A DNA stretch of 63,563 nucleotides, the filler included, from Nitrospinota bacterium (lineage in GTDB: Bacteria > JAUXIQ01), in the NCBI GenBank assembly GCA_030620925.1. It is 13 parts of 13 records of this genome, joined end to end, with 100 filler letters (N's around TTAATTAATTAA, not from the genome) between each part and the next. Parts side by side here need not be neighbours in the genome. Positions count along the whole stretch, not along the records: positions 33,481 to 42,496 come from JAUXIQ010000056.1; 12 more parts are not named here. One strand, given 5' to 3'. Below, in pieces: positions 6,647 through 42,596 of the stretch (position 1 is the stretch's first letter; the number at the start of each line of letters is the position of its first letter). Below the pieces are notes generated by a model. The model made no database searches. It had not been told where the DNA came from and saw only the letters and a list, made by a program, of their open reading frames with translations. The position numbers and the translations under genes were made by a program.

Positions 6647-6657
6647 GGGACGAAAAA

Positions 6658-7133: not shown

Positions 7134-7234
7134 NNNNNNNNNNNNNNNNNNNNNNNNNNNNNNNNNNNNNNNNNNNNTTAATTAATTAANNNNNNNNNNN
7201 NNNNNNNNNNNNNNNNNNNNNNNNNNNNNNNNNC

Positions 7235-7582
7235 AATGAACTGCTCGTGGAGCTGCTGAAGAGAGGAGACTTAGCACCAGGGGACTTTGAGAACATTTTC
7301 TCAGTCGAATCCCAGGTCGAAGGCGAAGCGAGAAGGCCGCCGGAAATTCCCGAGCAGGAAACCGCCATCCTGGAGATGGCCATAGAAAACGAAATAGTCG
7401 CCCAGGAGTTTTACAATCAGCAGGCGGAAAAGGGCAGCGAACCCTTGACGCAAACCCTCTACCGGACCCTGGCAAAGCAAGAATTGAACCATGAAAAGCT
7501 GCTGAGAGCGGAACTGGACAGCGTCAAGGGCTTAGGGCACTGGTTCGACTTCAGAGAATTTACCCTGGAGGCTCCAGGCTAA
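7235..7582 (+). CDS. Rubrerythrin/ferritin-like di-iron protein, C-terminal part
   Basis: ILEMAIENE..FY..LAKQELNH ExxH motif; reading frame is open to the contig edge. Confidence 0.75.
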   Translation, partial: NELLVELLKRGDLAPGDFENIFSVESQVEGEARRPPEIPEQETAILEMAIENEIVAQEFYNQQAEKGSEPLTQTLYRTLAKQELNHEKLLRAELDSVKGLGHWFDFREFTLEAPG

Positions 7583-7629
7583 AGAGAGGGGATGATTGGA
7601 ATTTCACAAATATCCCCCGTAAGTAATAA

Positions 7630-7670
7630 CAGAGGTCAGTCCTGATCAGGGCTGACCTCTGCAACCTTTT
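7630..7670. terminator. Hairpin/terminator between convergent genes
   Basis: CAGAGGTCAGTCCTGATCAGGGCTGACCTCTG near-perfect inverted repeat. Confidence 0.6.
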
Positions 7671-7707
7671 GATATTCTAGAAAAATAGAGCGGTTTCTCC
7701 TTCCGCT

Positions 7708-8142
7708 CTATTTCTTCAAATCCTCCATCAGCTCCAGGGTAACGCCGTCGGGGTCTTTGAAATAGACCACTTTCATCTCGCCCCTAACACTCTGCGGCTC
7801 GCTGTAAAACTCGAGCCCCATTTCCTTCAGTTTCGCGCACATACCGTCCAGGTCTGTGACGTTGAAAGCGATGTGGGTGAGCCCGTTGTCGCACTGCCTC
7901 CTCCCCGCCGGCAGCGTGTCGCCCACCGGGTTAGTATACTGGAAAAGCTCTATGCGCTGGTTGCTCACCTCCAGCATGACTATGCGCGTACTGGCCCCCG
8001 GAAGCCCAACTATCACCCCCAACTCTTCGGTCTTGATCTCCACATCCATGGCCACCTCCATGCCCAGAAAGTCTCTATAGAAAGCCAGGGAGCGTTCCAT
8101 ATCCGCCACGGAAATCGCCGTATGATTCACGGAAATAAGCAT
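7708..8142 (-). CDS. VOC/glyoxalase family protein
   Basis: NHTAISVADMERSLAFY, IELFQY, THIAF, YFKDPDGVTLEL. Confidence 0.9.
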   Translation of the reverse strand: MLISVNHTAISVADMERSLAFYRDFLGMEVAMDVEIKTEELGVIVGLPGASTRIVMLEVSNQRIELFQYTNPVGDTLPAGRRQCDNGLTHIAFNVTDLDGMCAKLKEMGLEFYSEPQSVRGEMKVVYFKDPDGVTLELMEDLKK

Positions 8143-8432
8143 CTGACAGCCCTCTCTATGGTTGGTTTATCCCTAACAAAACGCCGACTTATAGTAACCC
8201 AGGGGGTATACTTTTACAAGGTCTTTCGCAGCTTGATGCTTAGTATAGAACGAGCGCATTGGCCAGAAAAGACCTTATGCAGGGGCGCCTTCAAGGCGCC
8301 GGCAAGAGTTTTTAGGGCTTTTTTAAAAAAGGCCCCTCAAATTTCAGGTATATGCTATAATCGAGTCGTAAACGCACCGGACTTATACAAATTTCACCAG
8401 GAAATATCCCAAACCGACCAGCAGGGTAATAG

Positions 8433-9149
8433 ATGAACTATCAGGTCAAGCTTGAGATATTCGAGGGCCCGTTAGACTTCCTGTTAAACCTCATAAAGGA
8501 ACAGGAGATAGATATATACGATATACCCATAGCCCAAATCACCCACCAATACCTGGAATATCTTGACCTCATGCGGGAGCTGAACCTGGACATAGCCGGT
8601 GAGTTCCTGGTTATGGCGTCGACCCTGATCCATATAAAGTCCAGATTGCTGCTGCCTCCTCCCCTGGAAGAGGTTGAGGGAGAAGAAGAAGGCATAGACC
8701 CCAGGGAGGAACTGGTGCAGCGGCTGCTCGAATACAACAAATTTACAGACGCCGCCGAGGGTCTACGGGAGCGGGAATCGGTATTCATGAATGTATACGG
8801 CAGGGAAACCTCCCCCGACTACGAGGGGTTGGAGGAGGACGTCTATCTGGAAGTCTCCCTGTTCGATCTCCTTTCGGCATTCAAAAAAGTGCTGGAAAAG
8901 GTCGAAGAACGCGGGGGAGAGATCATAATTGCCGACGAACTGACGGTGACCGACCGGATAAACCAGATCCTGGAAACGCTTAAAGAGGACACGGCCACCC
9001 CCTTCGCCGACCTGTTTGAGGGAGCCTCCGGGCGTATGGAAGTCATCGTGACTTTCCTGGCCCTTCTGGAGCTCATCAGGTTGAGGATGGTCCAGGTTCG
9101 CCAGGGGGCCGAGTTCGGGAGTATCTGGATTTTCCTGCGCGGCGTATAG
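8433..9149 (+). CDS. scpA: Segregation and condensation protein A
   Basis: FEGPLDFLL, IDIYDIPI, EFLVMASTLIHIKSRLLLP, TFLALLEL. Confidence 0.95.
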   Translation: MNYQVKLEIFEGPLDFLLNLIKEQEIDIYDIPIAQITHQYLEYLDLMRELNLDIAGEFLVMASTLIHIKSRLLLPPPLEEVEGEEEGIDPREELVQRLLEYNKFTDAAEGLRERESVFMNVYGRETSPDYEGLEEDVYLEVSLFDLLSAFKKVLEKVEERGGEIIIADELTVTDRINQILETLKEDTATPFADLFEGASGRMEVIVTFLALLELIRLRMVQVRQGAEFGSIWIFLRGV

Positions 9150-26324: not shown

Positions 26325-26894
26325 TTAACTCGCGGCGTTATCTTTGTAGAACGCGGCGCCTTTTTCGATGGCCTCGCGGTTAAGGGGGAGCAGGTTGTGC
26401 CGTCTTTCGGGGAGTATCATTTTTAGCGAGTCCATCACCGAATCCGTGGTGACCACCCCGGTGGCGGCGGCGAAGGCGCCCAGTAAAACTATATTAACCA
26501 CCTGTTCGCTGCCCACCTCGGTGGCGAGGCTGTTGGCGGGGATATAGACCGCGTTGATGTCCTCTCTTTCGGCGTTCCTGTTGACCATGGAGCTGTTGAT
26601 GAGCAGTATGCCGCCGCTGGCTATCAGGGGCTCGTATCTGGTCAGTGAGGGTAGATTGAATACCACGGCGTTGGAGGGCCGCTCGATGTAGGGGTAGTGT
26701 ATCTTCTCGTCGGATATAATGACCGTGGAGTGCGCCGTCCCGCCTCGCACTTCGCTCCCGTAAACGGGCAGGTAGGTTACGTTTTTCCCCTCAAGCATGC
26801 CCGCCTGGGCCAGCAACTGCCCGCAGACGAGGACGCCCTGGCCCCCGAAACCCGAAAAGATGACGTCTAGTTTCAAGTGGCCTGTTCCTCCCAT
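26325..26894 (-). CDS. 2-oxoacid:ferredoxin oxidoreductase gamma subunit
   Basis: GFGGQGV, YGSEVRGG, NIVLLGA, N..AIEKG. Confidence 0.92.
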   Translation of the reverse strand: MGGTGHLKLDVIFSGFGGQGVLVCGQLLAQAGMLEGKNVTYLPVYGSEVRGGTAHSTVIISDEKIHYPYIERPSNAVVFNLPSLTRYEPLIASGGILLINSSMVNRNAEREDINAVYIPANSLATEVGSEQVVNIVLLGAFAAATGVVTTDSVMDSLKMILPERRHNLLPLNREAIEKGAAFYKDNAAS

Positions 26895-27652
26895 TTATCT
26901 TTGAGCAGCCCCAGCGGGAACACCTCCATCAGGTTTTCTACCAGCCAGGCTCTGGAATCGGTTGGGCTCATCCTCCAGCCCGTTGGACAGGGCGACAGAA
27001 TCTCCACCATGCTGAAGCCCCTGTTCTCCATCTGATACTGGAAAGCCTTTTTCACCGCTTTCTGAGCCTTGCGGATATTCTTTGGGTTATCCACCGATAC
27101 GCGCTCCACGTAAGCCGCCTCGTCAACGGTGGCCAGTATCTCGGACATCCTGAGGGGAGACCCCGCCCTTTCCTTTACCCGGCCCAGGGGCGTGGTGGTC
27201 GTCACCTGGTCGATGAGGGTGGTGGGGGCCATCTGCCCGCCGGTCATGCCGTATATGGCGTTATTGATGAGAAAACAGGTTATGTTCTCCCCCCTGGCCG
27301 CGGCGTGGATTATCTCCGCGGTGCCTATGGCCGCCATGTCGCCGTCTCCCTGATAGCAGAAAACGATTTTTTCGGGGAGGGCCCTCTTGAACCCGGTGGC
27401 CACGGCCGGGGCCCTGCCGTGAGGACCCAGGATCATATCCACGTCGAAATATCGGGGCATTATGGCCGAGCAGCCCACCGGTGCGCAGCCGATAGCTATT
27501 TCTTGCAGGTCCAGCTCGTCGATGGCCTGGGCCACCAGTTTATGCGCCGTTCCGTGCCCGCAGCCCGGGCAGTAATGCGTGGCAAGCGGTTCCAGCGATT
27601 GTGGCCTCTGCACTACGGCCCTGCGTCCGTCGTTCATGAAGGATGTCTCCAA
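26873..27652 (-). CDS. 2-oxoacid:ferredoxin oxidoreductase beta (TPP) subunit
   Basis: HYCPGCGHG, PVGCS, HGRAPA, QGDGD, NNAIYGMTGGQMAPTT, LSPCPT; start approximate. Confidence 0.92.
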   Translation of the reverse strand: METSFMNDGRRAVVQRPQSLEPLATHYCPGCGHGTAHKLVAQAIDELDLQEIAIGCAPVGCSAIMPRYFDVDMILGPHGRAPAVATGFKRALPEKIVFCYQGDGDMAAIGTAEIIHAAARGENITCFLINNAIYGMTGGQMAPTTLIDQVTTTTPLGRVKERAGSPLRMSEILATVDEAAYVERVSVDNPKNIRKAQKAVKKAFQYQMENRGFSMVEILSPCPTGWRMSPTDSRAWLVENLMEVFPLGLLKDKWEEQAT

Positions 27653-27679
27653 AAGTTTTTCGGATGAATCGCTCTTTGA

Positions 27680-28756
27680 TTATCCCTTTTCGCACAGCGA
27701 TCTGATAGCCGAGTAGATTTCTTCAAGAGAGATCAACCCCTCGGCCTTGCCCAGAAAGCTCACCTCTGCCTTATCGCCCACGGCAAATTGCACGTCCTCT
27801 ACCATCTGGCCCATGTTCCCCTCAACCACCAGAAACTTTTTCACCCTTTCGGAGGTCTTCCTGATGATCTCGGTGGGGAAAGGGAAAAGCGTTATGGGCC
27901 TTATCATACCCGCCCTGTATCCCTCCTGGTTGAGCTGGATGAGAGACTGTTTGACTCCACCCGCCGTGATACCGAAGGCCACCACTACCACGTCTGCTTC
28001 TTCTATTTCTATGGCCTCGTAGCGCGTTTCATTGAGGGCCACCGTCCTGTATTTATCTGCCAGGTGCCGGTTTAGCTCGTTAAGGTCGTTGAAGCTGCCG
28101 AAACCGGGAGCGGCGCCCCCCACTATCAGTTTTTTCTTCTTTCCCGCCTTGCCCCTCATGACCCAGTCCTTGGCCGGAAGCTCCTCCGAGGGGACGGCGT
28201 GCACTCTCTTGATTTCTATGGGTTTGGCCATGTTACCCAGCGTCGCTTCGGTCAACACCACCGCCACCATCCGGTATTTATCGGCAAGGTCGAAGGCCAT
28301 CTGGGTGTGGTCGAAGAATTCCTGGACGTCCATGGGGGCGAGGACTATGTTTCGGTAGCCGCCGTGTGCTCCGCCCTTGGTCACAGAAAAGTAATCCAAC
28401 TGTGTGGATTCCAGTGAGCCTCCTCCCGGACCCCCTCTTGAGACCAGCACCAGCACGCAGGGCAGCTCCGCGGCGGCGAAGTGTGAGAGGCCTTCCAGCA
28501 TGAGCGAGTAGCCGGGGCCGGAGGTGGAAGTCATGGTGCGCATGCCCGCGGCGGCGGAGCCGAACATCATGTTGATGGAGGATGTCTCGCTCTCCGCCTG
28601 TATAAAGGTCCCCCCCGCCTCAGGCAGGTGAAGGGACATATACTCGGGTATCTCGTTCTGAGGAGTTATGGGATAGCCGTAGTAGTGGGTGCAGCCGGCC
28701 ATGATGGCCGCTTTGCCCGCGGCTTCGTTCCCTTTGATCAGCACTATTTCGGCCAT
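27680..28756 (-). CDS. 2-oxoacid:ferredoxin oxidoreductase alpha subunit (VorB type)
   Basis: YYGYPITPQNE, QAESE, SRGGPG, TKGGAHGGY, RPITLFPFP. Confidence 0.92.
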   Translation of the reverse strand: MAEIVLIKGNEAAGKAAIMAGCTHYYGYPITPQNEIPEYMSLHLPEAGGTFIQAESETSSINMMFGSAAAGMRTMTSTSGPGYSLMLEGLSHFAAAELPCVLVLVSRGGPGGGSLESTQLDYFSVTKGGAHGGYRNIVLAPMDVQEFFDHTQMAFDLADKYRMVAVVLTEATLGNMAKPIEIKRVHAVPSEELPAKDWVMRGKAGKKKKLIVGGAAPGFGSFNDLNELNRHLADKYRTVALNETRYEAIEIEEADVVVVAFGITAGGVKQSLIQLNQEGYRAGMIRPITLFPFPTEIIRKTSERVKKFLVVEGNMGQMVEDVQFAVGDKAEVSFLGKAEGLISLEEIYSAIRSLCEKG

Positions 28757-31247: not shown

Positions 31248-33137
31248 TTATATTTTTCGTGCTGCTTCCGCGGCTGTTTCCATTGCTTCGAGGATTAATC
31301 TCGGTTCTATGCAGGGTTCAAGCAGGGTATAGGGGATACCGCACTCCTCGAGCAGCGCTTCCCTCTCCCCTGTTGAAACGTAACCCGCGGCACAGACCAC
31401 CGCGTCCGCGTATATCTCTTCCTCTTTTCCCTGTTTATTCCTATATTTAGTAGTATCGTCCACAACTGAGATAACTTCCACCTTATTTATCATTTCGATC
31501 CCTTCGCGGGCCATTTTTTCTATGAGCGCGTTCCTGGTGATCGGCTCCAGGCCGTTACCCGCTCTGCTCCTGTCGTTCAGAATGGTTACTTGCGCACCCC
31601 TATGAATCATATGCTCGGCGGCCTCACAAGCGGCGTGGTCCCCGCCCATTATCACCACCTTCCCTGGAGGTGTCTCTCTTTCCAATACCTCTTCCGGGGA
31701 GAGCGCCCCTGCTTCCTCAAGGCCGGGGATGCCCGGTTCGGCCGGTTTCATCAATGGCGCCGCCACAATGAAGTCGGGTTTCACTCTTCCGACGAGTGCG
31801 CTGTCCGTCTTTGAGCACAGGTTAACGTCTATGCTGAGCTCTTTCAGCGCTTTAAGCTTATGGGGAATAATGCCCCGCTGAAGCCAGGCCCAACGACCAC
31901 CTATCTTCTCCACCTGATCGTATATTTCAACTTTGTGGCCCCGCACGCCGGCGACTCTGGCCGCCTCCAGGGCGTCGGCCGAAGAGCCGATAACCATAAC
32001 TTTAAGCGGTTTTTGCGCCCGGCTTTCCACCAGCGTTTCGTTTCCTGCTTCGGGGTTCAACGAACAACTGATGGGGCTCTCCCGATAAAAGAGCTTGTAC
32101 ATGCAGGCGTTGCAGGCAATGCACCTGACTATCTCCGAGATGCGCTCTTCCCGGGCCTTTTTGGGCAGGTCGGGGTCCGCAAGCAGAGGCCGACCCATCC
32201 CTATGAGGTCCGCGTTCCCCTCCTTCAAGATGCTCTCAGCATATCGGGGGTCGTTTATTCGTCCCACGGCGATGACCGGCACCTTCACCGCCCGCTTTAT
32301 TTCAGTGGCTAACGGGACCAGGAAACCCCTCGGTTTCAGCATAGGCTGGACGGTAAACTGCATGGCGCCGAACTGGCCGGCGGAGACGTGGATTGCGTCG
32401 GCCCCATGCTCCTGCAGGATGGCGGCGATCTCTTTGGTCTGGTCTATGGTAAGGCCGCCATCGGCGAACTCGTCCGCCGAGATACGGAAGATGAGGGGGT
32501 AATCGGGCCCCACCAACTCCCGGCTCTTGCGCAGGATTTCTCTGGCGAAGCGGGTGCGGCGAAACAAGTCCCCTCCGTATTCGTCGTCCCGCTTGTTGGA
32601 CAGGGGAGAGAGCCACTGGCAGATGAAGTAGCCGTGGGCCCCGTGGAACTCCACGCAATCAAAGCCCGCTTTGCGGGCCCGCAGCACGGCCTCTGCGAAC
32701 CGGTCTTCCAGCTCATGAATTTCAGGAACGTCGAGCTCTCTGGGCGTTTCTCCTATCAGCAGATCGGGGATGGGCGACGGGGCGACGGTCTGATTCCCGG
32801 TCACCCGTTTGGAAGACTGGCGGCCCGGATGGTGGACCTGGATGCAGGCTTTAGCCCCGTTTTCCTGTATGGCTTTGGCCAACCTGGTGAGACCCGGGAG
32901 CTTGTCGTCGTCGTTGATCTTAAGCTGCCAGGAAGCGGAGTAGTTGTTTTTGTCTACGGCGCTGAACTCCACGATAATGAGCCCCGCGCCACCCGCCGCC
33001 CGGCGGGCGTAATATTCCACGGTGCGGTCGTTGACCCGGCCCTGTTCATCGGGCAGGCAGGTGCCCATGGGAGCGAAAACGATCCTGTTTTTAAGCTTCA
33101 GGGAGCCGATTTTGAACTCTGAAAACAGCATGCCCAC
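31248..33137 (-). CDS. NADH:flavin oxidoreductase (OYE TIM barrel + 4Fe-4S + FAD domain; BaiCD/FadH-like)
   Basis: LKNRIVFAPM, EFHGAHGY, NKRDDEYGG, CIACNAC..CSLNP. Confidence 0.9.
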   Translation of the reverse strand: MGMLFSEFKIGSLKLKNRIVFAPMGTCLPDEQGRVNDRTVEYYARRAAGGAGLIIVEFSAVDKNNYSASWQLKINDDDKLPGLTRLAKAIQENGAKACIQVHHPGRQSSKRVTGNQTVAPSPIPDLLIGETPRELDVPEIHELEDRFAEAVLRARKAGFDCVEFHGAHGYFICQWLSPLSNKRDDEYGGDLFRRTRFAREILRKSRELVGPDYPLIFRISADEFADGGLTIDQTKEIAAILQEHGADAIHVSAGQFGAMQFTVQPMLKPRGFLVPLATEIKRAVKVPVIAVGRINDPRYAESILKEGNADLIGMGRPLLADPDLPKKAREERISEIVRCIACNACMYKLFYRESPISCSLNPEAGNETLVESRAQKPLKVMVIGSSADALEAARVAGVRGHKVEIYDQVEKIGGRWAWLQRGIIPHKLKALKELSIDVNLCSKTDSALVGRVKPDFIVAAPLMKPAEPGIPGLEEAGALSPEEVLERETPPGKVVIMGGDHAACEAAEHMIHRGAQVTILNDRSRAGNGLEPITRNALIEKMAREGIEMINKVEVISVVDDTTKYRNKQGKEEEIYADAVVCAAGYVSTGEREALLEECGIPYTLLEPCIEPRLILEAMETAAEAARKI

Positions 33138-33481
33138 CTTACTCTCCGGATCAAAAGCGGGGTCTATCCGGTATCCCTCGGGAAAAATCTTCTATTATGT
33201 ATGGACTAACCCCCACGTTTCGGGCCGGGTAAAAACGCGGGGGCAATCATGATCGGATTCATTAAAACCCGACCCCGGGTGGAAAAGTTTAACCCACCCC
33301 GGTCAACCGTGGGAAAGGATCGAATTCACCGGCTAATGTTGTTTGCGGACGTTGTCGCGAATATAGCCGACCATGTCTCCNNNNNNNNNNNNNNNNNNNN
33401 NNNNNNNNNNNNNNNNNNNNNNNNTTAATTAATTAANNNNNNNNNNNNNNNNNNNNNNNNNNNNNNNNNNNNNNNNNNNNA

Positions 33482-35011
33482 GTGCCCTGGGCAAGTTTCG
33501 CCGAGGTGCCCGGAGAGCTCACCGTCCCGGAAATCGAAGAGCTCGTGCAGTGCTACGCCCTGGCCGCATGCCGGGCGAGAGAGGCGGGTTTCGACGGGGT
33601 GGAGTTTCATGGAGCCCACGGCTACCTCATCTGCCAGTTCTTCTCCCCCCTATCCAACAAACGCACCGATGACTACGGAGGAGACGTCAATAAACGGGCC
33701 AAATTCGGCGTGGACATAATGAAACTGGCCAGGGAAATGCTGGGGCCTGAATACCCCGTCCTGTTCCGCATCTCAGGGAGCGAGATGGAAGAAGGGGGCC
33801 TGACCACCGACGACACCCGGATAATCGCCGGCCTGCTCCAGGAGGCCGGGGCGGACTGCATAGACGTCTCCGCCGGAAACTACGGAGCATCGGAGTGGAT
33901 GTCGCAGACCGCTTTCATGAAACCCGGATGCATCGTCAAGTACGCCACCGAGATTAAGCGGGAGGTGGACGTGCCGGTCATCACGGTGGGCAGGATCAAC
34001 GATCCTCGCCTGGCGGAGACCATCCTGGAAGAGGACAACGCAGACATAATCGCCCTGGGCCGGCCCCTGCTGGCGGACCCCGACTATCCCCTCAAGGCCC
34101 AACAAGGGAGGCGTGAAGACATAGTAAAATGCATCGCCTGCAATAACTGTCTGGACATCATATTCCTCTATAAACCCATAGGGTGCATCCAGAACCCCTA
34201 CGTGAGCTACGAGCACGAGGAAAACGCCGAAGAAAAAGCGGTAACCCCCCGTAAAGTGCTGATAATCGGGGAAGGACCGGCCGCACTGGAGGCGGCCCGG
34301 ACAGCCGCCCTCCGGGGACACGACACAACCCTCTGGAAAACAAAAGAGCAGCCCGGGGGCTACTGGTCATGGCTCATCCACGGTTTCGTCGCCGAGAAAT
34401 TGAAAGCCATCAAGAAGCTGGGCGTGAAAATAGAGGACAAGAGCCGGGTGACCGCGGAAATGGTCAACCGGCTTATCCCCGACGCAGTGCTGGTGGAAAA
34501 TGAGGTGAGCCCCGGCGTGCCGGGTATACCGGGAGTTGACGGGCGCAACGTTTTGCAGGCGGTAGACATCCTTTCAGGTGAAAAAACGGCGGAAGGGAAG
34601 GTCGCAATTCTGGGGGGCGGCAGCATAGGCGTTCAAACCGCGCTGCACCTGGGAAAGAGGGGAGCCGACGTCACGATCATCGAAGAGAAGCGGGGGCCTG
34701 CTTTCGAGATCGAACAGGTTACCAGAAAAGTGCTCGTGCAAAGGTTGAACTCCTGCAACGTGAAGACCTTGTTCCGCTGTAAGGCCACGGCCATCGAAGA
34801 AAACGGCGTTAAATATCTCGACGGAGACGGCAACCAGGGGAGGATGGAAGCTGAAAACGTCGTGCTGGCCCTGGAGATGGAAACCCACACGGAGCTGATC
34901 GATAACCTCGAAAAGGAGGGCTTTCATACGGTTGCCCTGGAATACTGCCACTCGCAGCGGGGTGTTTGCAATTCAGTGCGCCAGGGGGCGGAAGCGGCGC
35001 GCAGTATATAG
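33482..35011 (+). CDS. NADH:flavin oxidoreductase (OYE family), 5'-partial
   Basis: EFHGAHGY, NKRTDDYGG, CIACNNC..CIQNP; paralog of 31248-33137. Confidence 0.9.
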   Translation: MPWASFAEVPGELTVPEIEELVQCYALAACRAREAGFDGVEFHGAHGYLICQFFSPLSNKRTDDYGGDVNKRAKFGVDIMKLAREMLGPEYPVLFRISGSEMEEGGLTTDDTRIIAGLLQEAGADCIDVSAGNYGASEWMSQTAFMKPGCIVKYATEIKREVDVPVITVGRINDPRLAETILEEDNADIIALGRPLLADPDYPLKAQQGRREDIVKCIACNNCLDIIFLYKPIGCIQNPYVSYEHEENAEEKAVTPRKVLIIGEGPAALEAARTAALRGHDTTLWKTKEQPGGYWSWLIHGFVAEKLKAIKKLGVKIEDKSRVTAEMVNRLIPDAVLVENEVSPGVPGIPGVDGRNVLQAVDILSGEKTAEGKVAILGGGSIGVQTALHLGKRGADVTIIEEKRGPAFEIEQVTRKVLVQRLNSCNVKTLFRCKATAIEENGVKYLDGDGNQGRMEAENVVLALEMETHTELIDNLEKEGFHTVALEYCHSQRGVCNSVRQGAEAARSI

Positions 35012-35058
35012 CAGTATATAATTGTGAGGGAACCTTTGTGTATGCCTCAAATTAGATA

Positions 35059-35130
35059 CCCACCCATTCATGGGTGGGAGCATCATGTCCCGCCTCGGCG
35101 GAATCACGAACCCCGTCACTTGTGGCGGGG
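35059..35130. repeat. Hairpins resembling IS200/IS605 subterminal palindromes
   Basis: CCCACCCATTCATGGGTGGG (35059-35078; second copy 51380-51405) and CCCCGTCACTTGTGGCGGGG (35111-35130); no transposase present. Confidence 0.4.
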
Positions 35131-35142
35131 GCACGCTTTTCT

Positions 35143-35334
35143 GTCATTCTGAACGTAGCCCCGTGGTACGCGGGGCGGAGTGAAGAATCTCGCCTACCCT
35201 TGCAAGCCCGTTTTCTTATGCGCTTTTCACACACTCCCTCCCCGTGGTTTATACAAACTTAGTGACCAGCGTTCTTTAAGGGAAAAATCCGAGTAGCTCG
35301 GATATGCGAGATTCTTCGCTTCGCTCAGAATGAC
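35143..35334. mobile_element. MITE-like/REPIN-like element with inverted GTCATTCTGA..GAAGAATCTCGC arms
   Basis: Left arm 35143-35193 (interrupted by CCCCGTGGTACGCGGGG) and right arm GCGAGATTCTTCGCTTCGCTCAGAATGAC 35306-35334 are reverse complements. Confidence 0.55.
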
Positions 35335-35537
35335 CGTGGCGGACAAGCGTGAGCGGCAAGATACCGCTCCTACTATGATGTGATCAAAGCATCAACCCTC
35401 TCCTTAAGAGCGCCTTCCAGGTGTGACCGGCTGCTCGCCCGTTTTCCCCTCCCCCGGTTCCCCCAAAACTTTTGTGTTTAGACTTCCAGATAGCTAAAGT
35501 ACCAGCAAAAAATATTTAAAATAATGTTAATTATAAT

Positions 35538-35566
35538 TTGACTGCGTGCCGATACTAAGTTATAAT
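35538..35566 (+). promoter_or_regulatory. Sigma70 promoter of the leader-mvaS transcript
   Basis: TTGACT (35538-35543), 17 bp spacer, TATAAT (35561-35566), AT-rich upstream. Confidence 0.8.
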
Positions 35567-35624
35567 CAGACACAATATAAATGAACGGTTACTTTTAACC
35601 CGAACTATCAGGACAACAGTATTA

Positions 35625-35729
35625 ATGTTTAGCAACACTACTCTCAATTTAGATGGGCTTCTCGGCCTCGCTTTATTAGGGCTGCTCCTACTTTTGCGGG
35701 AGCCCGTCGCGTCGAGTAGTGTTCGGTAG
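35625..35729 (+). CDS. Leucine-rich attenuator leader peptide (34 aa)
   Basis: MFSNTTLNLDGLLGLALLGLLLLLREPVASSSVR: 12 Leu using all six Leu codons, run CTG CTC CTA CTT TTG at 35682-35696; CAGGA upstream. Confidence 0.8.
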   Translation: MFSNTTLNLDGLLGLALLGLLLLLREPVASSSVR

Positions 35730-35790
35730 TTAATAATAAAATATAGAGTACTCGATGCCATGGGCTCAAAAAGCTCATGGCATTTTTTTT
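35634..35790 (+). promoter_or_regulatory. Transcription attenuator (protector, antiterminator, terminator helices)
   Basis: 35634-35643 pairs with 35714-35723; 35652-35664 with 35697-35708; 35709-35718 with 35749-35758 (overlaps the terminator); terminator 35755-35766/35772-35783 plus T8. Confidence 0.8.
35755..35790 (+). terminator. Attenuator intrinsic terminator upstream of HMG-CoA synthase
   Basis: ATGCCATGGGCT-CAAAA-AGCTCATGGCAT-TTTTTTT. Confidence 0.88.
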
Positions 35791-35987
35791 GACTGAAATC
35801 GTTTCGCCGGACAACATCTTAACCTGTCCGGCAGGGGGAAGGGGGGTGATGGCCTTGGGGTTAGCCATAGCCAAAGATTTATCTGACGAAGCTGAACTTA
35901 ACGAGATTTGTGTAGATTCCATAACTGAGAAACACTTTTCACCCAAGCAGAACTTTAAGAGAACTAAGATACCGGAGGTTCAAGAGA

Positions 35988-37544
35988 ATGATTAACGTTG
36001 GCATTGATGACATTGAAATCTATTTCCCTCGCCTGTTCTTTGACATCAAAGACCTGGCCGAGCTGCGCGATATCGAGTATGACAAACTGAACCGCGGCCT
36101 CGGCCTGGAGGCAATGGCTATTCCCGATACCCACGAGGACGCGGCCACCATGGGGGCCAACCCCGTGGCCAGCCTCATCGACCGCAACAATATAGACCCC
36201 CGCCGCATCGGCCGCATCTATTTGGGGACGGAAAGCGCCCTGGACGGCTCCAAACCGACGGCGACCTACATCCTGGACATGCTGGAACAGCGCTATTCGC
36301 CCGAGTACGGTGAGGACTGCCTGCGCAACTGCGACGTGGTAGATATGACTTTCGCCTGCATCGGCGCTGTCGACGCCCTGCACAACTCCCTCGACTGGGT
36401 CGCACGGGGCGGCGAAAGCGATGACCGCATCGGCATCGTCGTCTTCTCCGACATCGCCAAGTACGACATGCACTCCTCGGGCGAGTATACCCAGGGTGCC
36501 GCCGGCGGCGCGCTGCTCATCAAGCAGAACCCCAGGTTGATGGTGATACCCGACTGCTGGGGCGTCTCCACCAAGCCCGTGCACGACTTTTTCAAGCCGC
36601 GCCGGACGGTCGGTTTTTCGCAACTGTTCGATAACGTGTTGACCCTGGCCAAGGAGATGGGTGCCGACCTCCCCGGAGGTTTGGCCGAGAAGATGATCAA
36701 GATGCTGCCCAAATCCAAAGTCAAGGACCAGGGCATCTTCAGCCACGGCCATAAATCCTTGAACCTGCACGTAGACACGCCGGTGTTCGACGGCCAATAC
36801 TCAAACCGCTGCTACAGCGGCGCCATCAAAACCGCCTTCACGTCGTTCAAGGAGCAGGCGATCAAAACCGGACGCTACAACCCCGCTCAGGACGAGATTA
36901 TCACCGAGCAGTGGAAGCGCGTAAACATGCACCTCCCCTACGCTTTCCAGGGTAAGCGAATGTTCCCGGACATCTTCCTCTGCGACCGCCGCGGCCTGCC
37001 CGCCTGGCAGGAGATAACCGATCAGGTCGGCGAGGAACCGAATCGCGAGAATTTCGACGACACGCCTGAGGGTAAAGATGAATGGCACCGCCAGATGGAC
37101 AGTTTCCGCAGGACTGTCTCCCAGACGCCGCACTACAAGAAATTCGTGGAGGAGCGCATCGAGAAGGGACAGCGCGCATCGAGCCTCATCGGCAACATAT
37201 ACACCGGCTCCATATTCCTCTCTTTGATGAGCATGCTGGAGGCCGATATGCAGGACGGTATAGAACTCACCGGCAAGCCCGTAGGAATGTTCGGCTACGG
37301 TTCGGGCGCCAAGGCGAAAGTATTCGAGGGCATCATCCAGCCGGAATGGAAAGAGGTCACCGCCCGGTTCAACCTGTTCGATCGTCTGGCTACTCGCCAC
37401 TCCGTGGACAGCAAGTGCTACGAGGAGCTGCACCGCGAGGCGAGGAGAGAAAGCGTGGTACCGCCCAAAGGCGAGTTCGCTCTTGTCGAAGTGGGTGTAG
37501 ACGGCGTAAACGAAGGCGCACGCTCATACCAGTGGATCGGTTAG
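35988..37544 (+). CDS. mvaS: Hydroxymethylglutaryl-CoA synthase (long form)
   Basis: VGIDDI, EDAATM, YLGTES (Glu), FACIG (Cys), DIAKY, GEYTQGA, DFFKP, HLPY (His), GNIYTGS, YGSG; GGAGG RBS. Confidence 0.9.
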   Translation: MINVGIDDIEIYFPRLFFDIKDLAELRDIEYDKLNRGLGLEAMAIPDTHEDAATMGANPVASLIDRNNIDPRRIGRIYLGTESALDGSKPTATYILDMLEQRYSPEYGEDCLRNCDVVDMTFACIGAVDALHNSLDWVARGGESDDRIGIVVFSDIAKYDMHSSGEYTQGAAGGALLIKQNPRLMVIPDCWGVSTKPVHDFFKPRRTVGFSQLFDNVLTLAKEMGADLPGGLAEKMIKMLPKSKVKDQGIFSHGHKSLNLHVDTPVFDGQYSNRCYSGAIKTAFTSFKEQAIKTGRYNPAQDEIITEQWKRVNMHLPYAFQGKRMFPDIFLCDRRGLPAWQEITDQVGEEPNRENFDDTPEGKDEWHRQMDSFRRTVSQTPHYKKFVEERIEKGQRASSLIGNIYTGSIFLSLMSMLEADMQDGIELTGKPVGMFGYGSGAKAKVFEGIIQPEWKEVTARFNLFDRLATRHSVDSKCYEELHREARRESVVPPKGEFALVEVGVDGVNEGARSYQWIG

Positions 37545-37667
37545 CCGGTCCACTGCCGGCGGGCGCCGCCGCTCGACCGTTGAGGTCGAGAATTACGACG
37601 GTTCGGTCGCTCCGACCGAACCGCAAGGCCCTGAAGAGAAGTGCGTCTCGGGCCTAAAGCAATCCTT

Positions 37668-37800
37668 CGATTTCTATCTGCCCTTGAATACCGGCTTTCT
37701 TTTTTCAACGAAGGCCGTAGCGCCTTCCTTATGGTTTTCGGTGGCGAAGCCAGTAGCGCATGGCGAATTAGTGCCGCTCCTTCCACTCATCCAGCGGCAT
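37668..37800 (-). pseudogene. Degraded duplicate of the 3' end of the crotonase gene (direct repeat of 42039-42170)
   Basis: Near-identical sequence, with a 1-nt insertion (GAAGCCAGTAG vs GAAGCAGTAG) and a TCA-to-TAA nonsense change. Confidence 0.85.
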
Positions 37801-37954
37801 TTTGGAAGAAAACTGCCATCCTTCTCAGATAAGTCTATATCACCCGCGCCCGCTGAGTCATATAATATAGGGGAAAGACTTTTTTAGACACTGCGCGGCT
37901 TTTTTTGTATTATAGAACAGGTGATCTCGAATATAGGGAGGGATACGAGTAAAT

Positions 37955-38890
37955 ATGTCCAGTAAATTCAAGCATGACGTTGTTAACCGATGGGCGGGTA
38001 ATCCAATTATTACACAGGATAACCTGCCTTTTACCACCACGAACATCTACAGCGCTGCAGCGGTCGAAAAAGATGGTGAGTATATCCTGCTGGTGACGGT
38101 GGAAGATCTTGAGGGCAAGACTTTCATTCACCTGGCCCGCAGCGACGATGGGTACAATTTCGATGTAGCGGGCGACCCGTTTTTAAGCCCCTCTCAAGAC
38201 GAAAAATACCGGTTATTCGAGGAGAGGGGAGTACGCGAAGCCAGGGTAACCTTTATGGAGGGGAAATATTATATCGTTTATATGGGTACAGGGTTTCATG
38301 GTTTTGTTTTATGTCTGGCAGTTACAGAGGATTTTAACAATGTAGAGAGACTCGGAGTGATATCGGAGCCGGAAACCAAGGCGGGGGCACTGTTCCCGTG
38401 CAAATTCAACGGCAAATACGCCAGGCTGGAGCGTCCCAAAGAGGGAGACCGGATCTGGATATCCTATTCTCATGATCTTTTGACCTGGGGAGAAAGTGAT
38501 GAGGTGATTTCTCCTCGAGGCGGGTTCTGGGATTCCGGATTGATCGGGTGCGCCTTTCCACCCATGGAAATCGAGGAAGGATGGCTTCTGGGATACTACG
38601 CCATAAAGAATAAGCCGAGCGGCCCCATTTGGAGGATTGGAGCAGCCATTTTAGACCGCGATGATCCCTGCAGGGTCACAGCCCGGAGCAATATACCGAT
38701 TATCTCCCCCCGCGAGGATTATGAGCGGATAGGGGATATGAACAACGTGGTTTTCTCTTCCGGGGCAATACTGGAAAAAACCGGCGAACTTAAAATCTAT
38801 TATGCCGCCGCCGACAACTGCCTGTGTGTGGGTACTGCAAAGCTTTCAGAAGTCGTTACAACCTGTATCGAAAGCAGCAAGGAGTATTGA
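37955..38890 (+). CDS. GH130 family protein (degenerate catalytic motif)
   Basis: NPII, LARSDDG, GVREARVT (vs EDPR), ISYSHDL, ERIGDMNNVVF, YYAAAD. Confidence 0.85.
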   Translation: MSSKFKHDVVNRWAGNPIITQDNLPFTTTNIYSAAAVEKDGEYILLVTVEDLEGKTFIHLARSDDGYNFDVAGDPFLSPSQDEKYRLFEERGVREARVTFMEGKYYIVYMGTGFHGFVLCLAVTEDFNNVERLGVISEPETKAGALFPCKFNGKYARLERPKEGDRIWISYSHDLLTWGESDEVISPRGGFWDSGLIGCAFPPMEIEEGWLLGYYAIKNKPSGPIWRIGAAILDRDDPCRVTARSNIPIISPREDYERIGDMNNVVFSSGAILEKTGELKIYYAAADNCLCVGTAKLSEVVTTCIESSKEY

Positions 38891-38891
38891 G

Positions 38892-39824
38892 ATGCCCGGT
38901 AGGCGAGGTCCTGATCTTTTACACCGCTGGGAAGGGAATCCGATTATTACCCTGGAAGACATTCCTTTCCGGTGCAATACGGTATTTAACGGCTCCTCTG
39001 TAAAGATCGGAGATGAATATTTGATTCTTCTGCGGGTCGAGGGACAGCAGGGTTATTCATTCTTCGCCCTGGCCAGGGGGGATGACGGCTATCATTTTGA
39101 TGTAGACCCGGAGCCTGTCCTGCTTCCGGAAAAAAACGGTCCTTTTGCAAAATATGAGACCCGTGGGTTGGAAGACCCACGGATCACCTTAATCGATGGG
39201 GTCTATTACATTCTATATTCTGTTGCTTCCAGTTACGGAACAAGGATCGCTATTGCAAAAACCCATGACTTTCAACGCTACGAACGCATCGCCATCATTT
39301 CCGAACCGGGCAACAAGGACGGCGTGCTCTTCCCGGAGAAGATCAAGGGAAGGTATGCCAGGCTGGACCGACCTCTTGGATCGTATAATGTCGGCTGCAT
39401 CTGGATTTCATATTCTGACGACCTGATCCACTGGGGCCATCATGAACCGGTAATCATGCCGCGGTCGGGATATTGGGACGCTGACCGCATAGGAGCATCC
39501 GTTCCGCCTATAAAAACCGAGAAGGGATGGCTGGAAATTTACCACGGCTTCAAAATGACAGCCTCAGGCCCCATCTACCGGATGGGAGCGGTTCTCCTGG
39601 ACCTGGACGATCCCGCAAAAGTGATTGCCCGAAGCGATGATGCCATACTTTCACCAAGGGAAAAATACGAGCGAATAGGAGACGTCAACAACGTAGTTTT
39701 TGCCTGCGGCGCCATAGTAGAGCCGAACAACGAAGTGAAAATATATTACGGTGGGGCGGACACCTGTTTATGTGTTGCGACCGTAAATATAGATCGGCTG
39801 ATTGAGGTTATAATAGAGGTATGA
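38892..39824 (+). CDS. GH130 beta-mannoside phosphorylase/hydrolase
   Basis: VFNG, LLRVEG, GLEDPRIT, NKDGVLFPEKI, EIYHG, ERIGDVNNVVF, YYGGAD; start set at ATG 38892. Confidence 0.9.
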   Translation: MPGRRGPDLLHRWEGNPIITLEDIPFRCNTVFNGSSVKIGDEYLILLRVEGQQGYSFFALARGDDGYHFDVDPEPVLLPEKNGPFAKYETRGLEDPRITLIDGVYYILYSVASSYGTRIAIAKTHDFQRYERIAIISEPGNKDGVLFPEKIKGRYARLDRPLGSYNVGCIWISYSDDLIHWGHHEPVIMPRSGYWDADRIGASVPPIKTEKGWLEIYHGFKMTASGPIYRMGAVLLDLDDPAKVIARSDDAILSPREKYERIGDVNNVVFACGAIVEPNNEVKIYYGGADTCLCVATVNIDRLIEVIIEV

Positions 39825-40867
39825 TTCGACGACATGAGACAAATCCTCTGATCAAGCCTGAAATGGTCAAGCCGTCCCGCAGCGGCTATCGTGTGAGAGG
39901 AGTGTTTAACCCGGCGGCCGCAGTCTACGGCGACGAGATAGTTCTTTTGCTGAGGGTAGCCGAGGACTGCGAGAGCAAAGACGGCCGGGTGGCGGTTCCC
40001 TATTACAGGTTTGAAGGGGGACGGGGCCATCCGGAAATTCTGGAAGTAAGGGCGGATGATCCCGCTGTGCAGTTAAAGGATACGCGGGGCGTGGTTTATG
40101 AGGGAAGAGACTACCTGTCCACCCTGAGTCATATTCGGCTGGCTCGCAGCCGGGATGGGGTAAATTTTAAAGTAGACGAAAAACCGTTCATCTATCCCTG
40201 CCATGAGAGTGAATCTTTCGGGGTGGAAGACGCAAGAGTTACAAAAATAGGCGACAACTATTATATCAACTATACCGCCGTTTCCGGCGACGGCTTTGCC
40301 ACCGCCCTGGCCGCCACTGAAAATTTCGTCGATATTGACCGGAAGGGGATTATCTTCCCGCCGCAGAATAAGGATGTTTCCATTCTCCCGGAAAAGATCA
40401 AGGGGAAATATTGCGCACTGCACCGCCCCAACAACGACGGGTTCGGTTTGCCCTCCATCTGGTACAGCGAATCGCAGGACCTTATTCACTGGGGCAATCA
40501 CAAGTGCCTGGCCCGGCCGCTGGACACGATGTGGGAGAAAATGAAAATAGGTGGTGGAGCGGCACCGATAAAAACAAGGGAAGGATGGCTGGAAATTTAC
40601 CACGGCAAAGGAGAAGACCATGTCTACTCGTTGTCGTTATTATTGTTGGATTTAAACCAGCCTTCACTAGTGTTGAAAAGAGGGCGAGAGCCGATCCTAT
40701 TCCCGCAAGAGAAATATGAAACCGAGGGCTTTTTCCCCAACGTCGTGTTTTCCAACGGCTTGATTGAAAAAGATGACGGCAGACTTTTTATTTATTACGG
40801 CGCATGCGATGAAACAGTTTGTCTGGCGGAAACGACCGTGGAATCACTTTTAAACACATTGAAATAG
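39821..40867 (+). CDS. GH130 beta-1,2-mannobiose phosphorylase-like (Lin0857 type)
   Basis: NPLI.P..VKPS, GVFNP, LLLRVAE, YLSTLSHIRLARS.DG, GVEDARVT, NKDV, ALHRP, IYHG, GFFPNVVF. Confidence 0.85.
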   Translation: MIRRHETNPLIKPEMVKPSRSGYRVRGVFNPAAAVYGDEIVLLLRVAEDCESKDGRVAVPYYRFEGGRGHPEILEVRADDPAVQLKDTRGVVYEGRDYLSTLSHIRLARSRDGVNFKVDEKPFIYPCHESESFGVEDARVTKIGDNYYINYTAVSGDGFATALAATENFVDIDRKGIIFPPQNKDVSILPEKIKGKYCALHRPNNDGFGLPSIWYSESQDLIHWGNHKCLARPLDTMWEKMKIGGGAAPIKTREGWLEIYHGKGEDHVYSLSLLLLDLNQPSLVLKRGREPILFPQEKYETEGFFPNVVFSNGLIEKDDGRLFIYYGACDETVCLAETTVESLLNTLK

Positions 40868-40880
40868 AGGAGGAGGCAAA

Positions 40881-42011
40881 ATGAGAATAGCTTTTATTTC
40901 CACCTATCCTCCCATTGAATGCGGCATTGCCACTTACACCAGTTACCTTAATGATGCGTTGAGAAAGCTGCATAACGAGACGCTGGTGATCAGCCCTTTC
41001 GGTGCAGCGGGAGAAAATGTGTTTCCCATTTACTCGCGGGGCAGCGCCTACTTCGCCTCTGAAACCTTTAACATTTGCGAAGAGATAACCCCCGACCTGG
41101 TCCACATACAACACGAATACGGACTCTACGGCCCTCAGAAGGGAGTCCACATAATAGAGCTGATTCTGAGATTACGCCTGGTCGGCTTACCTGTCGTTAC
41201 CACTCTGCACACGGTGTACGAAGACCTTAATAATGATGAACAAATTATTCTCCGCATAGTGGTGGATGAAAGCTCGGCGATTATCGTCCACGAGGATTAT
41301 CAGAAAGAGACGCTGGTGAGATATTTCGGCGGAGGGGAAAAAATCCACGTGATACCCCATGGCGTGCGGGAGCTCCTGCCCATTCCCGACGCCAAAGAGA
41401 AGCTGGAAATCTTCGACAAACAGGTGATACTTTTATGCGGCTACTTTCGGCCCACCAAGGGGTTTCATAAAATTGTGGAATGGTTCCCGGAAATCTGTAG
41501 GCAAGTGGATGATGTGATTCTGGTAATCGCAGGGAAATCGCGAGGCCTGGAGTTCCGGGACTATCAGAGGAAGTTTTTTGAGTCGATCAACAGTTCTCCG
41601 GTCAGTGACAAAATCGCTGTGCTGAGAGGACAATTCCCCCAGGATACCTTTGATACGATCGTCTCCGCCAGCGACGTGGTGGTATTACCTTATGAAATCG
41701 GCGCCCAAAGCGGCATAATGGCACACTGTTTCGCCTTCGGCAAGCCGGTCATTACCTCAAATCTGCCGGCGTTTAAGAAGACCATCGACAAGAGCAAAGG
41801 GGGCTTCACCTGCGATACCGAAGCAGATTACATGGAAAATATTGTAAACACCCTCAATGACTCGAACTTACAAAAGATGCTCGAGGAAAATATAAGAAAC
41901 TACGTAAAAGAAAAAGTGGGCTGGTCAACTGTGGCCCAACAACATATCGAGGTTTATCGCTCGGTCATTAGAGTTCCCTACGGCAACGCAAAGTATGTCT
42001 ATCTGGGATAA
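40881..42011 (+). CDS. Glycosyltransferase family 4 (GT-B)
   Basis: STYPPIECGIATY, HIQHEYG, TTLHT, IPHG, KGF, SDVVVLPY..QSG..GKPVI. Confidence 0.9.
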   Translation: MRIAFISTYPPIECGIATYTSYLNDALRKLHNETLVISPFGAAGENVFPIYSRGSAYFASETFNICEEITPDLVHIQHEYGLYGPQKGVHIIELILRLRLVGLPVVTTLHTVYEDLNNDEQIILRIVVDESSAIIVHEDYQKETLVRYFGGGEKIHVIPHGVRELLPIPDAKEKLEIFDKQVILLCGYFRPTKGFHKIVEWFPEICRQVDDVILVIAGKSRGLEFRDYQRKFFESINSSPVSDKIAVLRGQFPQDTFDTIVSASDVVVLPYEIGAQSGIMAHCFAFGKPVITSNLPAFKKTIDKSKGGFTCDTEADYMENIVNTLNDSNLQKMLEENIRNYVKEKVGWSTVAQQHIEVYRSVIRVPYGNAKYVYLG

Positions 42012-42044
42012 ACGTCACGTGTAACTGAGAAGTTAATCCGATTT

Positions 42045-42496
42045 CTATTTCCCCTTGAATACCGGCTCTCTCTTCTCGACGAAGGCCGTAGCGCCTTCCT
42101 TATGGTCTTCGGTGGCGAAGCAGTAGCGCATGGCGAATGAGTGCCACTCATTCCACTCGTCCAGCGGCATATTAAGGCCCCTGCGGATGCCTTCCTTGGC
42201 CAGTTTCAGCGATATCGGAGGCTTGTTGGCGATCCTGCCCGCCAGCTCCATGGTAGCAGGCATCAGCTCCTCGTGGGGAACCACCTTGTTGACCAGGCCG
42301 ATGCGCGCCGCCTCCGCCCCGTCTATGATGTCGGCGGTTAGTATCAGCTCGTAAGCCTTGGCCAGACCCACCAGCCTGGGCAGCATGATCATCCCTTCGT
42401 CGGGGATCAGCCCCACTCTCAGGAACACCTCCCCGAACCTGGCTCTTTCAGAGGCTATCCTCATGTCGCACATCAGGGTGATATCGCAGCCGTAGC
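42045..42496 (-). CDS. Enoyl-CoA hydratase/isomerase (crotonase; PaaG-like Asp motif), 5'-partial
   Basis: GYGCDITLMCDMRIAS..FGEVFLRVGLIPD..LPRLVG..GLVNKVV..EGATAFVEKREPVFKG. Confidence 0.88.
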
Positions 42497-42596
42497 NNNN
42501 NNNNNNNNNNNNNNNNNNNNNNNNNNNNNNNNNNNNNNNNTTAATTAATTAANNNNNNNNNNNNNNNNNNNNNNNNNNNNNNNNNNNNNNNNNNNN

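Follow-up and report, generated by a model that had tools for sequence, protein, structure and literature searches.

A probable leucine-responsive transcription attenuator upstream of an HMG-CoA synthase gene in an uncultured sediment bacterium

The genome assembly of a Nitrospinota bacterium (GCA_030620925.1) contains an mvaS-type gene for HMG-CoA (3-hydroxy-3-methylglutaryl-coenzyme A) synthase that is preceded by a leader region resembling a ribosome-mediated transcription attenuator; this leader, with its short leucine-rich open reading frame (ORF), and the gene that it appears to control are the subject of the present analysis. The window, that is, the whole stretch of DNA analyzed, is 63.5 kb long and consists of 13 contigs joined by 12 linkers (N44, 12 nucleotides (nt), N44; e.g., 33381-33480 and 42497-42596), so that gene neighborhoods across the linkers are not real. 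The leader and mvaS are located together on one contig of 9016 base pairs (bp), 33481-42496. In window coordinates, the locus comprises the following features.

35538-35566, plus strand: sigma-70-type promoter, with the -35 element TTGACT at 35538-35543, a 17-nt spacer and the -10 element TATAAT at 35561-35566.
35610-35613, plus strand: weak Shine-Dalgarno-like motif AGGA, 11 nt 5' of the leader ATG.
35625-35729, plus strand: leader ORF of 34 codons plus TAG, with its ATG about 52 nt past the putative transcription start, encoding MFSNTTLNLDGLLGLALLGLLLLLREPVASSSVR.
35634-35643 and 35652-35668, plus strand: region 1, which supplies the 5' side of the protector (anti-antiterminator) and pairs with region 2.
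35682-35696, plus strand: five Leu codons in a row, CTG CTC CTA CTT TTG (codons 20-24).
35697-35723, plus strand: region 2, the switch strand, contained in the final 10 leader codons.
35749-35767, plus strand: region 3, which serves as the antiterminator 3' strand and also includes the entire terminator 5' arm (35754-35766).
35754-35790, plus strand: intrinsic terminator of 13 pairs including G-U (35754-35766/35772-35784), with a 5-nt loop CAAAA and a T8 tract at 35783-35790.
35791-35987, plus strand: 197-nt spacer between the terminator and mvaS, with the mvaS Shine-Dalgarno sequence GGAGG at 35974-35978.
35988-37544, plus strand: mvaS-type HMG-CoA synthase of 518 amino acids (aa), the presumed regulated gene; the protein has both the N- and the C-terminal HMGCS domain (PF01154, 80.7 bits; PF08540, 72.5 bits; both above the cut-offs).

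The promoter matches the consensus at 11 of 12 positions, a score of at least 11/12 being reached by only three sites, this one included, on both strands of the whole window, and a score of at least 10/12 by 21. Six other sites with at least 10/12 matches (290, 5431, 12369 and 37885, and 28845 and 50895 on the minus strand) are each followed closely by a Pfam-supported gene in the same orientation, so the host appears to use this promoter consensus; it appears to use terminators of the type found in the leader, too. Judging from the position of the promoter, transcription would start near 35573.

The leader ORF includes 12 Leu codons among its 34 (positions 7, 9, 12, 13, 15, 17, 18 and 20-24), and these cover all six Leu triplets (CTC four times, TTA three times, CTT twice, and CTG, CTA and TTG once each). 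Both the near-consensus TTGACT-17-TATAAT promoter and the 34-codon upstream ORF with 12 Leu codons, all six triplets and five of them in a row had been reported in a first-pass annotation of this DNA, and both are borne out, the former by the promoter scan and the latter by translation and codon count. A run of at least four Leu codons is present in just one of the 449 ATG-initiated ORFs of 12-70 codons in the window, namely the leader ORF itself, and among 20000 Markov-simulated leaders of 220 nt, a run of five was found in 4 and a content of at least 12 Leu codons in 17. The triplets TTA, CTA, CTT and TTG make up 7 of the 12 leader Leu codons, compared to 34% of the 1372 Leu codons in 43 genes, and CTG accounts for 1 of the 12, compared to 43% in the same genes. 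This apparent preference for Leu codons that are rare in the host fits a sensor, but AT-rich non-coding sequence as well. The characteristics of the attenuator class that were found in the ORF are its short length and proximity to the promoter, a start codon, a ribosome-binding site, albeit a weak one, and the cluster of codons for a single amino acid. The 11-nt spacing of the AGGA motif falls within the 1-13 nt range seen in those genes of the window that have an SD-like motif (19 of 37), and sequencing runs X1 and X10 show natural A>C variation at position 35618, between AGGA and the ATG.

Conceivably, the peptide is itself the product of this region, in which case the compact cassette of about 215 nt from promoter to terminator would be an independent small gene for a hydrophobic membrane peptide of 34 residues, which might be toxin-like, or for a small RNA, and mvaS would be transcribed only via leak-through or from an unrecognized promoter. 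A hydrophobic core of 16 residues, LDGLLGLALLGLLLLL, with charged residues after it is what such a gene might encode, and weak (9/12) promoter-like sites are present on the minus strand inside the cassette. However, the peptide belongs to none of the NCBIfam families (0 found), gave no usable match in the protein atlas and is not present as an exact sequence among the called proteins, its codon usage is unlike that of the host genes, and no plus-strand promoter-like site that could serve mvaS was detected downstream. Moreover, such a gene would leave unexplained why an antiterminator of 20 pairs extends over the ORF end as well as the terminator arm. We regard an independent small gene as rather unlikely.

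The leader transcript can form three helices, 1:2, 2:3 and 3:4, that are mutually exclusive, with regions 2 and 3 each common to two of them. The protector is a two-part hairpin that consists of a perfect 10-bp helix (35634-35643/35714-35723), an 11-bp helix (35652-35662/35698-35708) and a 6-bp apical helix; folded alone, it reaches -36.5 kcal/mol, and its pairing was equaled by 23 of 3000 shuffles. Leu codons 21-24 fall in a 13-nt unpaired bulge of this hairpin, and the leader ORF ends with its stop codon near the 3' end of region 2, 4 nt after it. Region 2 can pair either with region 1, via 35698-35708 and 35714-35723, or with region 3, via 35700-35707 and 35709-35718. In the latter case, the resulting antiterminator is a 19-nt, 84% complementary repeat (35700-35718/35749-35767) that forms 20 pairs and, when folded alone, has an energy of -31.5 kcal/mol. 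When the terminator arm was kept fixed and the upstream 121 nt were dinucleotide-shuffled 3000 times, not a single shuffled sequence reached this complementarity (observed -32.7, mean -15.2, minimum -28.2, z -7.4), and of the six terminator-like hairpins detected in a scan of the window, only that of the leader has a strong upstream complement (-31.3 vs -15.4 or weaker). The terminator hairpin has an energy of -20.2 kcal/mol, and the first two T of the T8 tract are able to pair in its stem. The leader transcript as a whole folds at -67.4 kcal/mol (z -3.98), a value that 1 of 200 shuffles matched.

The mutually exclusive helices ending in a terminator that the first-pass annotation had described thus hold up, are better supported than it had claimed and pass the shuffle controls, and its perfect 10-bp protector helix is confirmed, but the boundaries of the other elements had to be redrawn. 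The second protector helix, originally placed at 35652-64/35697-708, is present and extends over 11 bp; the 10-bp antiterminator (35709-35718/35749-35758, with one G-U pair) is real but constitutes only part of the larger 19-nt helix; and the terminator, described as a 12-bp stem with U8, does contain the hairpin and the T8 tract, with a stem that we count as 13 pairs including G-U.

Apart from these comparisons, the terminator segment 35749-35791 was found, with 4 differences and between unrelated flanks, in a 286-nt contig of run X1 that shares nothing else with the leader. There is no second copy of this segment within the window; it may be recurrent or mobile. An origin of the locus by tandem duplication, raised by two 8-mers that are each spaced by 251 nt, was rejected, as the segments do not align beyond these words.

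The response of the leader to translation was modeled by folding the transcript from 35573, with the ribosome represented as a 28-nt stretch forced to be single-stranded. In the co-transcriptional series without a ribosome, transcripts ending at 35708-35764 fold most stably into the protector, and the antiterminator prevails only at 35768-35776; from 35780 on, the combination of protector and terminator (-66.3 kcal/mol) is preferred to the antiterminator conformer (-53.3 kcal/mol), so that the default outcome is termination. When region 4, the 3' arm of the terminator, was not yet made, placing the A site on Leu codons 7, 9, 12, 13, 15, 17, 18, 21, 22 or 23 (10 of the 12) yielded 16-20 antiterminator pairs, and placing the ribosome on codons 24-34 yielded 0-1. 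The parts of an attenuator are present in silico, their complementarity is non-random, and they respond to modeled ribosome occupancy. In these simulations, the folding behavior is that of classical attenuation, with one soft spot at the stop codon.

Taken together, these features make it probable, in our view, that the leader is a ribosome-mediated transcription attenuator that senses Leu-tRNA and induces mvaS at low leucine. By inference, the upstream ORF would be translated, the response would depend on leucine, and it would serve the physiological purpose discussed below. Under the mechanism we propose, transcription would proceed from the strong promoter, with regions 1 and 2 pairing first and forming the protector hairpin. 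With ample leucine, the ribosome would run over region 2 to the TAG, and with no translation at all, the protector would stay closed; either way, region 3 would be available for region 4, and transcription would end near 35790 at the resulting hairpin and U run. Should Leu-tRNA be scarce, the ribosome would stall on one of the 12 Leu codons in region 1 or in the loop, which would open the protector and free region 2. Regions 2 and 3 would then form the antiterminator, which at -31.5 kcal/mol would outweigh the terminator at -20.2 kcal/mol, and the polymerase would cross the 197-nt spacer into mvaS.

Several observations weigh against this interpretation. In the folding model, a stall on Leu codon 20 leaves the protector the most stable structure because the ribosome sits in the protector loop, and a stall on Leu codon 24 gives neither protector nor antiterminator. 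A ribosome at the stop codon covers 35712-35739, so that 11 antiterminator pairs (35700-11/35756-67) can still form, in competition with the inner protector helix. The classic geometry proposed in the first-pass annotation is thereby only partly upheld: stalls on Leu codons 21-23, and on seven earlier Leu codons, give the antiterminator, those on codons 20 and 24 do not, and the region 35709-35718, which the ribosome at the stop codon was thought to cover, is covered in part. In the full-length transcript, the terminator is the most stable structure at every ribosome position; a thermodynamic switch operating at full transcript length was rejected on these grounds, and because the terminator always wins once region 4 is made, the switch must be kinetic and co-transcriptional. 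Classical attenuators are likewise kinetic rather than thermodynamic. In the modeled energies, an antiterminator formed after a stall (-31.5 kcal/mol) should resist displacement by the weaker terminator (-20.2 kcal/mol). Further points of this kind are the weakness of the leader Shine-Dalgarno motif (AGGA, spacing 11), the plausibility of the leader peptide as a single-pass hydrophobic helix, and the results of the Rfam searches, which detected no families, Leu_leader and T-box included, in the whole window at the gathering threshold and, at E values up to 10, only four chance-level matches in 35400-36050, none of them to a leader peptide or T-box. The regulated gene is not one for leucine biosynthesis or tRNA charging, although the mechanism of the class does not require this, and no genes of the aib or liu type were found on the mvaS contig. 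The comparable strains are near-identical, without any change inside the ORF or helices, and hence give no signal of covariation or codon conservation, and in all five of the more distant mvaS loci compared (62-63% identity, GC content about 40%), the gene is preceded by a gap of about 85 nt that lacks a leader. Finally, according to work cited in PMC1262725, mutation of the candidate Leu leaders of leuA and ilvB in Streptomyces coelicolor did not have the effects expected of classical attenuators.

Some of these points would suit a reading in which the same three-helix switch responds to something other than Leu-tRNA, such as translation speed (as in ermC-type regulation) or an RNA-binding protein or small ligand that stabilizes the protector, the Leu frame being a by-product of a pyrimidine-rich strand. 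Indeed, it is the helix logic that has the strongest statistics, and it is independent of the reading frame; the feeble Shine-Dalgarno motif and the non-classical S. coelicolor leaders (PMC1262725) lean in the same direction. The ORF itself argues otherwise: it begins at an ATG preceded by an SD-like motif and terminates 4 nt past region 2, its Leu run and Leu content are as rare in simulation as described above (4 and 17 of 20000), the right structural outcome is obtained for 10 of the 12 Leu codon positions, and there is no Rfam riboswitch or T-box match. We therefore consider a sensor other than Leu-tRNA unlikely, and continue with the leucine-sensing attenuator as the preferred explanation.

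Near-identical DNA was detected in 20 sequencing runs from 11 studies, most of them labeled as marine sediment, cold seep or marine metagenome; no RNA run is listed among those containing the leader stretch. Contigs from three other studies cover 35487-36043 (X1), 35608-35904 (X10), and 35457-35617 together with 35685-36179 (X4, which leaves out 35618-35684), and the contig of run X11 lies outside the leader. In this region, positions 35499, 35618 and 35943 are the only ones at which the X1, X10 and X4 contigs depart from the window sequence: the leader ORF and all helices are identical in X1 and X10, and 35685-35790 is identical in X4. The presence of the same sequence in strains from several studies indicates that the element is real DNA and not an assembly artifact. 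A probably spurious ORF (see below) that in another strain is represented by a 78-aa version (P0217) implies a T9 in place of the T8 tract there, with the hairpin kept. The first-pass annotation had proposed that the upstream regions of close mvaS homologs be compared; near-identical strains keep the upstream ORF and the helices, and the five loci with 62-63% identity, which have no leader, look archaeal. Of these five loci (L001-L005), three come from genome contigs titled Poseidoniales or Euryarchaeota and two similar ones from metagenome contigs; the absence of the leader from them says nothing about bacterial relatives.

Upstream of the promoter are two inverted copies of a short element, at 35143-35191 (plus strand) and 35308-35334 (minus strand), with the sequence GTCATTCTGA(A/G)CG...GAAGAATCTC, for which 0 copies are expected by chance. 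Word depth in the stretch 35300-35340 ranges from about 100 to 8800 in all four runs, compared to about 5 for the flanks, which indicates that this repeat is common to many organisms in these samples.

It could be argued that the leader is a chance or non-functional assemblage, namely an AT-rich spacer beside repeats in which a terminator-like hairpin, possibly mobile, happens to accompany an open frame. The adjoining pair of widespread repeats, the X1 contig that carries the terminator segment alone in another context, and the very large size of the scan, in which rare coincidences are to be expected, could all be cited to that effect. Nevertheless, several low-probability features that are largely independent of each other occur here in the required order and with the right spacing, which makes an origin by chance unlikely even given the size of the scan, and the sequence is kept in strains of several studies while nearby coding positions vary. 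We consider a chance origin very improbable indeed.

That the leader controls mvaS, as the preferred interpretation requires, is suggested by the layout of the region downstream of the terminator. No promoter-like site was found on the plus strand between the terminator and mvaS (35791-35987) at the scan threshold, so the scan gave no sign of the separate promoter in 35790-35988 that the first-pass annotation had considered as a means of driving mvaS independently of the leader. The spacer does not seem to contain a second regulatory structure either, as its fold is no better than those of shuffles (z +0.58), and the GGAGG motif is positioned 9 nt 5' of the mvaS ATG. The gene appears to be monocistronic, the next one being 410 nt away and having a promoter-like site of its own (37885). 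Given that no plus-strand promoter-like site was detected in front of mvaS, that the spacer has no significant fold and that the next gene has its own promoter-like site, read-through from the leader is the simplest source of mvaS mRNA. Within the spacer, at 35806-35852, there is a perfect 8-bp inverted repeat, GCCGGACA-11 nt-TGTCCGGC, followed by a G-rich tract, GGCAGGGGGAAGGGGGGTGATGG, to which a C-rich tract at 35452-35464, on the upstream side of the promoter, shows partial complementarity; the inverted repeat and G tract could be an operator, or nothing. An ORF of 72 aa at 35777-35995 (plus strand), which overlaps the mvaS start and has been called as a gene publicly (in a cluster of 3 members of 68, 72 and 78 aa), was treated as spurious: its start is in the terminator arm, its upstream frame shifts with T8/T9, and it belongs to no family.

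The catalytic residues of HMG-CoA synthases are Glu, Cys and His, and the motifs GTE, AC(I/Y)G and H(L/V)P of the mvaS product align with those of structure 5hwq. By sequence, 5hwq/5hwo is the closest solved structure (E 2e-49), and 5HWO is the HMG-CoA synthase of Myxococcus xanthus, as given in Table 1 of PMC11522927. The protein scores below the cut-off of the NCBIfam equivalog models (235 vs 360 bits), which points to a divergent subfamily of HMG-CoA synthases. Its closest relatives form a cluster with 96-99% identity (P0002, P0122 and P0123), followed by proteins with 60-66% identity that, when named, come mostly from marine Poseidoniales archaea (marine group II, MGII), with one from Cytophagales, though the host is bacterial; this distribution suggests that mvaS has passed between the domains.

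Why a leucine-responsive switch would control this gene is a separate question. Of the overall interpretation offered in the first-pass annotation, the structural reading is supported by the chance controls and by folding under ribosome occupancy, and the reason for controlling mvaS is still a matter of interpretation. By analogy with the M. xanthus system discussed below, the most likely purpose would be de novo formation of HMG-CoA when leucine, the usual source of isovaleryl-CoA and HMG-CoA, is in short supply. Alternatively, mvaS could be a leucine biosynthesis gene proper, in a leuABCD-independent route leading from acetyl-CoA via HMG-CoA, 3-methylglutaconyl-CoA, isovaleryl-CoA and 2-oxoisocaproate to leucine. 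In such a route, an oxidoreductase of the VorB type would reductively carboxylate isovaleryl-CoA to 2-oxoisocaproate, and the FadH/OYE-type enoate reductase encoded 5' of the leader could perform the enoyl-CoA reduction. Reductive carboxylation of this kind occurs in anaerobes, and the window encodes two sets of 2-oxoacid:ferredoxin oxidoreductase subunits, at 5570-7133 and at 26325-28756 (minus strand), whose alpha subunits, at 438 and 425 bits, exceed the 399-bit cut-off of the NCBIfam model for the VorB (branched-chain 2-oxoacid) subfamily. We view this route as doubtful; if it were true, the leader would represent the first case of an attenuator pointing to a leucine pathway other than the canonical one.

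Besides the leader and mvaS, the contig contains the following genes.

33482-35011: 5'-truncated gene for a FadH/OYE-type Fe-S flavoenzyme.
37955-42011: three tandem genes of the GH130 (mannoside phosphorylase) family followed by a GT4 glycosyltransferase gene, with their own promoter-like site at 37885.

A 970-nt non-coding stretch separates the truncated FadH/OYE-type gene from mvaS. A second FadH-like gene (31248-33137) belongs to a different contig and is not a true neighbor of mvaS. Every named homolog of the FadH-like gene that shares the contig with mvaS comes from bacteria, and the contig looks bacterial. The genes of the bin include those for ScpA, an SLH-domain protein, Wza/Wzz, ExoVII, LarA and the two VorB-type 2-oxoacid:ferredoxin oxidoreductases, and on this gene content, the bin is bacterial and anaerobic in character. 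The host lineage is poorly sampled, to judge from the NFACT protein, the relatives of which show 94% identity, 60% and then only about 30%, with the named ones at about 30% being Armatimonadota-like. No tRNA genes were found in the window. A radical-SAM protein encoded at 402-2051 (plus strand) has an HMPTM N-terminal zinc ribbon (PF23545, 74 bits), a domain tied to pterin methylation in methanopterin biosynthesis, which would be unexpected in a bacterial bin.

The organization of the leader parallels that of the enterobacterial leu leader (leuL; Rfam Leu_leader) and of the trp, his, thr and ilv attenuators, which likewise combine a short promoter-proximal ORF carrying a codon run with the overlapping helices 1:2, 2:3 and 3:4, the last being the terminator. 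Like leuL, the leader makes use of rare Leu codons, has its stop codon where a ribosome that meets no obstacle would cover region 2, and has its U run about 90-100 nt past the regulatory codons. In E. coli, the leu leader has a run of four Leu codons, whereas the present leader has 12 Leu codons and all six triplets. It also differs in having no homology to leuL detectable by Rfam in sequence or structure, in its two-part protector, in belonging to an uncultured sediment bacterium and in its target, which is HMG-CoA synthase and not leuABCD. Firmicutes Leu T-boxes have in common with the proposed switch the signal, the charging of tRNA-Leu, and the output, terminator versus antiterminator, but they read uncharged tRNA directly, without a translated ORF, and no T-box match was obtained here.

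With respect to the target, the nearest known parallel is the alternative isovaleryl-CoA biosynthesis (AIB) operon aibR-aibA-aibB-aibC-mvaS of M. xanthus, through which isovaleryl-CoA is made from acetyl-CoA; according to PMC5389471, leucine limitation renders this operon highly active, and AibR represses it when bound to isovaleryl-CoA. A gene of the mvaS type would thus be switched on at leucine limitation in M. xanthus and, as proposed here, in the sediment bacterium, and the nearest solved structure to the present enzyme is that of the M. xanthus enzyme. The sensors differ: in the AIB system it is a TetR-type protein that reads isovaleryl-CoA, and here it would be a ribosome that reads Leu-tRNA. 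Furthermore, the present enzyme has 518 aa and belongs to a clade common with Poseidoniales archaea, and no homolog of aibA, aibB, aibC, liuC or aibR was found on the mvaS contig or elsewhere in the 63 kb. Until now, the link between leucine and HMG-CoA rested on the protein regulator AibR in Myxococcus.

Leader-peptide attenuators have been described in front of amino acid biosynthesis and tRNA synthetase genes, mainly in Proteobacteria and Actinobacteria and in some Firmicutes, according to PMC2965389 and PMC1262725. The leuS attenuators of Streptomyces are comparable to the present case in that Leu-codon leader ORFs with a terminator and antiterminator occur outside Proteobacteria, before a gene other than leuABCD, and in the Actinobacterial LEU element of leuA, a pseudoknot hides the Shine-Dalgarno sequence, a mechanism that is probably not classical attenuation (PMC1262725). 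The targets of these Actinobacterial Leu leaders, unlike mvaS, are still leucine-pathway or tRNA-charging genes (PMC1262725). A full-text literature search, which omitted most subscription journals and hence is weak evidence of novelty, found no publication combining leader peptide, attenuation, HMG-CoA synthase and leucine.

Leader-peptide attenuators reveal which amino acid a cell ties to a gene. If our interpretation is correct, a sediment bacterium couples the formation of HMG-CoA to its leucine supply, a connection learned without cultivation; the attenuator device would extend to a poorly sampled lineage, and the leader, at about 215 nt, would be a small switch amenable to testing, with all six Leu codons among those it reads. 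Compared with the known systems, the mechanism proposed here is of a familiar kind, and it is the target gene and the lineage that are new for it.

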